Source: Eledone cirrhosa
Taxonomy: Eukaryota
Assembly: GCA_964016885.1 (NCBI GenBank)
Contig: OZ024749.1
Span: forward strand, 55,180,001 to 55,244,000
Direction: 5' to 3'
Length of the DNA stretch: 64,000 bases
This document shows, in pieces, positions 6,271 to 63,346 of this stretch; the stretch's first letter is position 1; each line of letters starts with the position of its first letter. The position numbers and the translations under genes are program-made. The notes below the pieces were generated by a model. That model was not told the DNA's origin, did not search any database, and saw only the letters and a list, made by a program, of their open reading frames with translations.

Positions 6271-6520
6271 GAGACATACAGATACATAGGTATATATTGA
6301 TGTACAGTGGAGTGACATATATTATATTATTTCTGTATAGCAATTCAAATTCAAAATCAAAATTAAAACAAAATTAAAATACATTCGGCAGTTAACATAG
6401 ATAATGCAAGAGGATAGTTTGTTAGTCAGATGTAGTAGTTATTGTATGCGTTAGTTACACGTGGGGCATGCACGTGTGTCTCATTTATATATGATTATTG
6501 TGTGGCAGGGTGTTACATGT

Positions 6521-6703
6521 AATACAAGCACTTTACCCGATGGACCATAATGCACCAGAGTACTCAATACTTAGGGTAGTAGAGTGGGAAATAGGAAAAA
6601 GTATGACCCCGACGGCAGAGCTCAAGCCATTTCGACGGCTATTTCTCGACTCAGAAATAGCCGTCGAAACGGCTTTAGCTCTGCCGTCGGAGTCATACTT
6701 TTT

Positions 6704-6708
<5 letters not shown>
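6521..6708 (-). mobile_element. Fold-back element, family B (118-bp hairpin plus one-sided tail)
   Basis: Inverted repeat 6591-6646 / 6653-6708, ends in (TA)n, homologous to 56367-56571. Confidence 0.85.
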
Positions 6709-6755
<47 letters not shown>

Positions 6756-6806
6756 GGTGTACGTGGTTGTTTATATGTATATTATGTGCATATATATACA
6801 TTAAAT

Positions 6807-54836: not shown

Positions 54837-54949
54837 GCAGTCACGCATATATGTGTATATATATACTAGCGTGAGTGTGCGTATATATTTACATATATAT
54901 ATGAAAAGATACAGTCCCCTGACGGCTTAGCTCCGGTCGTTTCGACAGT

Positions 54950-54981
<32 letters not shown>

Positions 54982-56366: not shown

Positions 56367-56571
56367 AAAACGAAGGAAATGTGGTAAGGAACCAGATGGA
56401 CCATAACGCACCAAAGTACTCAATACTTAGGGTAGTAGAGTGGGTAATAGGAACAATTAGGTCCCCGACGGCTGAGCTCAAGCCGTTTCGACGGGTAATT
56501 CTGGACTAAAAATCCAGAATTAGCCGTCGAAACGACTTAAGCTCAACCGTCGGGGTCCTACTTGTTCCTAT
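56367..56571 (-). mobile_element. Fold-back element, family B, in (TA)n
   Basis: Inverted repeat 56447-56505 / 56513-56571 plus an 80-nt one-sided tail; TA on both sides. Confidence 0.85.
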
Positions 56572-63249: not shown

Positions 63250-63252
<3 letters not shown>

Positions 63253-63320
63253 GGAACGAGTAGGACCCCGACGGCTGAGCTCAAGCCGTTTCGACGGCTA
63301 ATTCTGGAATCTTTTCCTAT
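63250..63320 (-). mobile_element. Family B single-arm copy in (TA)n
   Basis: One arm, bounded by ataggaa / ttcctat; a further fragment lies at 54911-54950. Confidence 0.8.
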
Positions 63321-63346
63321 ATATATATATATTCTGCCTCTTTTCC

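Follow-up and report, generated by a model that had tools for sequence, protein, structure and literature searches.

Palindromes in a 64-kb window of the Eledone cirrhosa genome as probable stump-sized 3' ends of an abundant Penelope-like element

The two palindromes found in the stretch of DNA analysed here (the window: C9:55,180,001-55,244,000 of a 3.0-Gb assembly, 64 kb) appear to be ordinary end pieces of a very abundant Penelope-like element (PLE), likely made afresh at each insertion by a known form of two-ended copying. We consider it probable that they are stump-sized insertions of the element's 3' end, each built on landing in a (TA)n tract from two cDNAs. An earlier account made from the letters of the window (the sequence-only reading) had proposed that a hammerhead ribozyme folded back at its own stem II hairpin and so lost its 5' half; parts of that account stand, and they are taken up below with the results that bear on them.

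Window DNA is AT-rich, eukaryotic and crowded with (TA)n. A repeat search of the window recovered both palindromes (Table 1), the first (copy 1) with arms of 56 nt that are 95% complementary across a 6-nt spacer, the second (copy 2) with arms of 59 nt that are 90% complementary across a 7-nt spacer. The right arm of each runs through the 3' strand of helix II, GAAA, a 4-5-bp hairpin, GUC and a strand of stem I, as the sequence-only reading had described. It had also noted the absence of CUGANGA, and this was borne out: CTGANGA followed by CGAAAC within 4-30 nt occurs 0 times in the 64-kb window, and Rfam returned no hammerhead there at the gathering score. Rfam at E <= 10 on window positions 6400-6800 likewise gave no hammerhead, only weak microRNA-like matches that are due to the hairpin and (TA)n. 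Lacking the stem I 5' strand and the 5' box, the window palindromes do not have the full three-helix hammerhead layout. A 16-mer covering the helix II strand, GAAA and the start of stem III has six matches in the window at up to 3 mismatches, where shuffles expect 0.03.

Copy 1 carries the head motif at 6568-6596 with 1 mismatch, the outer ~28 nt of its tail is decayed or interrupted upstream of 6539, and its tail-side arm reaches ~5 nt deeper into helix II than its tail-less arm. By comparison with the parent element described below, both window centres lie in the upper 3' strand or apex of helix II. The sequence-only reading had placed the centres at the stem II loop; copy 1 turns a few base pairs below the loop. 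That the loops of the two palindromes differ was correct, their centres being indeed different. Two 10-nt stubs at window 63311-63345, consisting of an arm's last bases (ending CCTAT) and lying inside a (TA)n tract, look like extremely truncated insertions.

Table 1. Positions of element-derived features in the window (a dot marks a feature without strand)
Feature	Positions	Strand	Basis or remark
Copy 1, tail (3'-most part of the element RNA, as reverse complement)	6539..6590	-	aligns to the tail of parent L152
Copy 1, tail-side arm (3' part of the hammerhead-like motif)	6591..6646	-	repeat search, parent alignment
Copy 1, inter-arm junction	6647..6652	.	split 15 of 26, 1 mismatch to parent type L177
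Copy 1, tail-less arm	6653..6708	+	repeat search, parent alignment; CCTAT end merges into (AT)n
Copy 1, tail-less arm: helix II 3' strand	6658-6665	+	
Copy 1, tail-less arm: GAAA	6666-6669	+	
Copy 1, tail-less arm: helix III hairpin	6670-6686	+	
Copy 1, tail-less arm: GUC triplet	6686-6688	+	
Copy 1, tail-less arm: stem I 3' strand	from 6689	+	
Copy 2, tail, complete, 78 nt	56369..56446	-	head motif, parent alignment; (TA)n immediately before
Copy 2, tail-side arm	56447..56505	-	repeat search, parent alignment
Copy 2, junction, apical part of helix II	56506..56512	.	repeat search, centre split against parents
Copy 2, tail-less arm	56513..56571	+	repeat search, parent alignment; CCTAT end, then (AT)n
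Third copy, one full arm without tail, in (TA)n	63250..63310	-	
Third copy, end stub of the opposite arm, 10 nt	63311-63321		
Fourth copy, older subfamily, one arm only, tail-less, with its 5' truncation in the helix II strand, within (TA)n	54899..54952	-	

Genome-wide, the 191-nt copy 2 used as a query found at least 3,847 candidates, and all 40 of the 40 scored were full length at 91-100% identity, while a tail/head 19-mer had 42,304 exact matches (21,219 + 21,085) and its reversed control 0. Every copy shown follows one plan: (TA)n, a unique "head" of 78 nt, a left arm, a short centre, a right arm and (AT)n, with the right arm closing in CCTAT, a centre that is different in almost every copy, and (TA)n flanking nearly all copies shown. 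A subfamily of greater age (83-89% identity; at least 3,084 candidates) shares this head and has its right arm in full, yet retains only 0-14 nt of the left arm, and almost every one of the 30 copies examined has a join of its own. Such variation means that each copy acquired its join separately, in a directional process. Truncated copies always retain CCTAT or the tail end, in the fashion of retroelements, and both arms of any unit always belong to the same subfamily.

Some other descriptions of these copies were tried and set aside. A tRNA-derived SINE head, suggested by a box-A-like word, gave way to the finding that the head is the reverse complement of the element's own 3' tail, and the unit ends do not fit a Helitron. 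Asymmetric variants shared among L001-L030 were considered as the legacy of an inherited mismatched palindrome; they are absent from the unselected set, and the best explanation is that these copies had been chosen because they resemble the window copy. Among side observations, the flanks of L003, L045, L071, L072 and L075 hold another repeat, with (ATC)n at its start or end and a conserved stretch of ~40 nt, which may share the habit of targeting microsatellites, and the left arm of L071 contains a small inversion, of the six bases that separate its GCCG and CGGC words, with the helix III stem as its limits.

The origin of the arms became visible in an unselected sample, the first 30 head/tail matches along contig C1, in five of which the arm continues into a long element. 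Read on the opposite strand, this parent runs as element body, hammerhead-like motif, CCTAT, complement of the head and (AT)n, from which it follows that the "head" is the reverse complement of the element's 3' tail. The parent 3' region has at least 2,125 candidates in the genome, and the 40 that were scored are 96-100% identical, which marks the family as young. Parent copy L150 is ~3.4 kb long and contains two open stretches (452 and 292 aa) whose frames differ where they overlap; these hold YRDD, DKT (as HSDKTG), a CxCX5C linker (CNCPDRSIC) and a VIY...YIG nuclease-like part, and both are colinear with one 953-aa public protein (P0001). Their Atlas neighbours carry RVT_1 in 16-48% of members or GIY-YIG in 35-60%. 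Pfam at E <= 10 gave nothing for either open stretch or for three longer homologues, and a search of PDB sequences likewise returned nothing. Because Pfam recognises nothing, the assignment of the protein to PLEs rests on the short motifs, the colinearity with P0001 and the Atlas neighbours. Judged by these sequence marks, the parent appears to be a PLE with the features of the Hydra clade, namely DKT, the CxCX5C linker, a short length and a (TA)n target, which are the marks given for that clade in section 11 of Craig et al. 2021 (PMC8557442). The possibility that the tail is the element's 5' start, by the logic of a pseudo-LTR, was dropped, the 5' end of L150 having no likeness to the tail. 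Two further observations were made near parent copies: in L098, ~1,000-1,400 nt beyond the element end (printed-strand 1-360), there is a tandem repeat with a unit of ~100 nt and at least 3.5 copies, and L147:7299-7964, just upstream of an element copy, holds an open stretch of 222 aa that is distinct but has this nuclease-like layout too, probably belonging to another PLE family.

RNAalifold, applied to 27 parent ends from several subfamilies, predicted a three-way junction with a two-part stem I, an unpaired YUGANAAGYU, the base of a long helix II and an unpaired UCGAA, followed on the 3' side by a 5-bp helix III, whose 9-nt loop contains the palindrome GAGCUC, then UC and the return strand of stem I. 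On this model the motif has the layout of a type I hammerhead, with G10.1-C11.1, GAAA, A15.1-U16.1 and GUC in place and with A at position 8. The alignment columns of the A15.1-U16.1 pair (82/101) read A-U in 25 of the 27 sequences, and GAAA, A15.1-U16.1 and GUC are present in the arms as well as in the parents. A small apical hairpin sits in helix II of the parent exactly where most fold-backs turn. Changes on both sides of a pair occur at one of the 20 predicted pairs and in a single sequence (L175), in a family too young for more, and the single-sequence fold of the motif (z = -1.03) is indistinguishable from that of shuffles.

A pattern of the 5' box with its flanks has 3,552 exact matches in the genome (control 0), with A at position 8 in 3,516 of them and G in 36. 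By hand count, the first 100 matches listed have U (66) or C (34) at position 3, and all four bases occur among them at position 7. The family box is accordingly YUGANAA; canonical CUGANGA accounts for 8 of the 3,552 matches, and these eight copies look like scattered mutation. U at position 3 with A at position 8 preserves the 3-8 pair, a natural covariation described for Schistosoma PLE hammerheads in the relevant sections of PMC4209133. The sequence-only reading had predicted an intact parent, and a complete three-helix element does exist, but with YUGANAA in place of the CUGANGA it expected. A search of the kind it had suggested, for CTGANGA followed after 0-2 nt by a perfect helix II strand, gave 0 matches in the genome; in the true parent the box is a different one and the strand imperfect. 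Ribozyme searches miss the motif of the clade here because core position 8 is A: Rfam at E <= 10 found no hammerhead on parent end L105:1300-1700. RF00163 has 18 matches in the same genome, from another family. A separate (TA)n-inserting fold-back family (L031-L040; for example L032:1501-1545) carries a canonical type I hammerhead that scores 35-38 bits on RF00163 (gathering score 34), and its fold-back centres vary between copies. A permuted arrangement of type II, in which CUGANGA would lie downstream within the tail, was also looked for in the PLE and none was seen.

The tail follows a rule across units of all sizes. The 78-nt tail is present at 15 of 28 parent ends, and the other 13 stop at CCTAT. 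When up to 10 kb upstream was fetched for 20 parent ends, 10 of the 13 tail-less ends were found to face a tail-bearing inverted arm, with the other three alone within ~9.5 kb, and none of the seven tail-bearing ends examined had an inverted partner. The small palindromic units (n = 55, all DNA fetched) have one tail in 52 cases, none in two and two in one; a tail-to-tail copy is seen in L091. This one-tailed inverted design spans units from 40 nt to ~5 kb (L131, ~5 kb), so the window palindromes are the smallest members of one series of insertion units. The stumps end 5' of GAAA and thus keep only the 3' part of the motif. The 5' half of the ribozyme was not "replaced", as the sequence-only reading had it; it was simply never copied in these 5'-truncated insertions.

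Junction classes, assigned by eye in the 30 unselected copies, comprise turns in upper helix II or at its apex (14), turns elsewhere in the arm, at the helix II base, the helix III loop or stem I (6), a turn within the tail (1), run-on into the element (5), a complex case (1) and plain truncation (3). Upper helix II is the turning point in 14 of the 21 fold-backs of this sample, and the ribozyme hairpin is a favoured but not the sole turning point. Arm lengths were compared by splitting each centre against parent helix II sequences in 51 one-tailed units, a set in which unselected copies are mixed with others chosen because they resemble the window copy. The tail-side arm reaches further in 16, the tail-less arm in six, 17 are symmetric and 12 unclear; once the units picked for likeness to the window copy are left aside, the tail-side arm is longer in seven and the tail-less arm in five. 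Six of the 39 classifiable units have, in their tail-less arm, bases that match the parent and are missing from the arm on the tail side, in four of these units at 0 mismatches. Two units have unusual centres. In L093, near 1543, the arms are joined via a run of 18 A that looks like untemplated filler, and L009, near 424, is a larger fold-back with a 96-nt centre, whose turn lies at the motif's 5' core box and one of whose arms is without the helix II apical loop, as if copying had skipped the tip of the hairpin.

The finished copies suggest the following course of insertion. Two cDNAs would be primed on the two cut DNA strands of a (TA)n landing site, one beginning at the RNA 3' end, beyond the tail, and the second inside the RNA, at a UAU(U)A site on the border of the tail (CCUAU). 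Both would run 3' to 5' and stop early. Being alike in sequence, their 3' ends could pair only at self-complementary parts of the element, above all at the apical hairpin of helix II, and would be joined at the site of pairing. Adjacent inverted 5'-truncated copies, a one-sided tail and a bias to (TA)n are described for PLE insertions in passages of PMC8557442. Purified PLE protein cuts and extends both target strands (Frangieh et al. 2024, PMC11167929), with reverse transcription beginning at two adjacent internal sites and the tail being the stretch between them (PMC11167929). That two-start experiment used the lizard Poseidon element, with starts 30-40 nt apart, compared with the 78-nt tail here (PMC11167929). 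The longer arm may be on either side, a finding more readily reconciled with two separately primed cDNAs than with one snap-back; post-insertion deletions at palindrome centres could also shorten either arm.

The main competitor, which we regard as unlikely yet deserving of attention, stays closest to the sequence-only reading: at each insertion a single cDNA, primed at the RNA 3' end, would fold back on the hairpin that mirrors helix II and copy itself. Sections of Arkhipova et al. 2013 (PMC3846280) interpret PLE inverted-junction palindromes as self-priming, the concentration of turns in upper helix II speaks for snap-back at this hairpin, and neither the 17 symmetric units nor the 16 whose tail-side arm is the longer conflict with it. 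However, if one arm has parent bases that the other lacks, it cannot have been copied from that other arm, and the six units with such a tail-less surplus therefore make single snap-back insufficient for all units, unless centres lose bases after insertion. A self-copy should moreover continue through the tail, whereas the second arm halts at CCTAT in 52 of the 55 small units; tail-less ends stand alone in three of 13 cases; and both strands are cut and extended in vitro (PMC11167929). The hairpin thus keeps its place as the preferred turning point proposed by the sequence-only reading, but nucleation of a single snap-back does not account for the whole set.

We think it very improbable that the palindromes are a self-propagating non-autonomous element of MITE- or SINE-like kind, with a single origin and a centre that decays after insertion, despite a majority sequence of the two arms that is a perfect palindrome, a very high copy number and centres that sometimes recur, as in the perfectly symmetric apical form shared by L010, L025 and L081. 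Stump centres hold differing, non-nested pieces of the parent's apical loop and far-side stem, remnants that a palindromic master would lack, and their differences rule out descent from one such master. The older subfamily, with its full tail-less arm, its tail-side arm of 0-14 nt and joins that differ across 30 copies, points the same way, as do stump subfamilies that mirror those of the parent. Nor are the unit ends inverted repeats of each other, the tail lying on one side only and CCTAT on the other. The MITE-like derivative put forward by the sequence-only reading is contradicted by junctions and loop remnants that differ per copy within a series reaching from 40 nt to 5 kb. Hardly credible, in our view, is a function of the half-ribozyme arms themselves, for example as targets of trans cleavage by an RNA providing the 5' box: it would agree with the presence of only GAAA, helix III and GUC in each arm, but copies decay freely at core positions, the window arms reading GAAAT and GGAG and the core being altered also in L073, L081 and L095. 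Per-insertion joining of two cDNAs remains our preferred explanation.

A more speculative thought, to which we give little weight, is that the hammerhead fold at PLE ends is kept for a role in DNA, the cDNA of helix II serving as a self-complementary pad at which the two oppositely primed cDNAs would pair, or one would fold back, and so finish the insertion. If true, this would explain why the fold is retained despite a non-canonical box (A8) and despite hammerhead cleavage being dispensable for PLE insertion in vitro (PMC11167929).

These results tentatively assign a repeat with more than 42,000 copies in a 3-Gb genome to a named retroelement clade, and its thousands of junctions are a natural record of how PLE insertion is finished, a step left open by published in vitro work. 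The clustering of junctions at one hairpin of a ribozyme-like motif is a small but testable lead. For annotation, the palindromes should be masked as retroelement ends, and not recorded as MITEs, microRNA-like hairpins or ribozymes.

Compared with known systems, the element shares with the Hydra clade, as characterised in parts of PMC8557442, DKT in place of DKG, the CxCX5C linker, a short length and (TA)n targets, and molluscs are among the hosts of that clade; the same text reports canonical hammerheads clade-wide, whereas A8 is found in ~99% of copies here. Likeness to the pseudo-LTR hammerheads of PLEs, as far as these are set out in the relevant sections of PMC4209133, includes the type I layout in a terminal repeat region, G10.1-C11.1, an irregular 5' base of helix II and a palindromic loop 3, and the U3-A8 that replaces C3-G8 in the Cercyon hammerheads of Schistosoma is also found here, in 66 of the first 100 copies listed. 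Unlike the 1-2-bp stub described in those sections (PMC4209133), helix III here is predicted as a stable 5 bp with a 9-nt loop; helix II is also ~50 nt long, and C3 stands opposite A8 in 34 of the first 100 copies listed.

The insertion units closely resemble those of EN+ PLEs. Head-to-head inverted arms whose 3' ends point outward, heavy 5' truncation, a tail on a single side, short inverted-junction palindromes and a (TA)n target are all found in the accounts given in passages of PMC8557442 and PMC3846280 and in PMC11167929, and two reverse-transcription start sites bracket the tail there (PMC11167929), as they would here. The differences lie in the tail (78 nt here, 30-40 nt as described), in the size and number of the units, most of which are tiny here (~120-200 nt) and present in tens of thousands, and in the preference of the junction for a single hairpin within the ribozyme-like motif.

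Twin priming of human L1, which Ostertag and Kazazian reportedly described in 2001, is said to place two cDNAs on the two strands of one target and so to leave an inverted 5' part. Priming of two cDNAs on two target strands would be common to both systems, whereas the second L1 primer is said to anneal at variable internal places; here it would use a single fixed position where the tail begins, and the two arms represent one and the same part of the RNA. The architecture, the tail, the two starts of reverse transcription and the U3-A8 core variant have all been published before, and what is of some interest in the present family is the A8 core in a clade reported as canonical, the 78-nt tail and the clustering of junctions at the apex of helix II.
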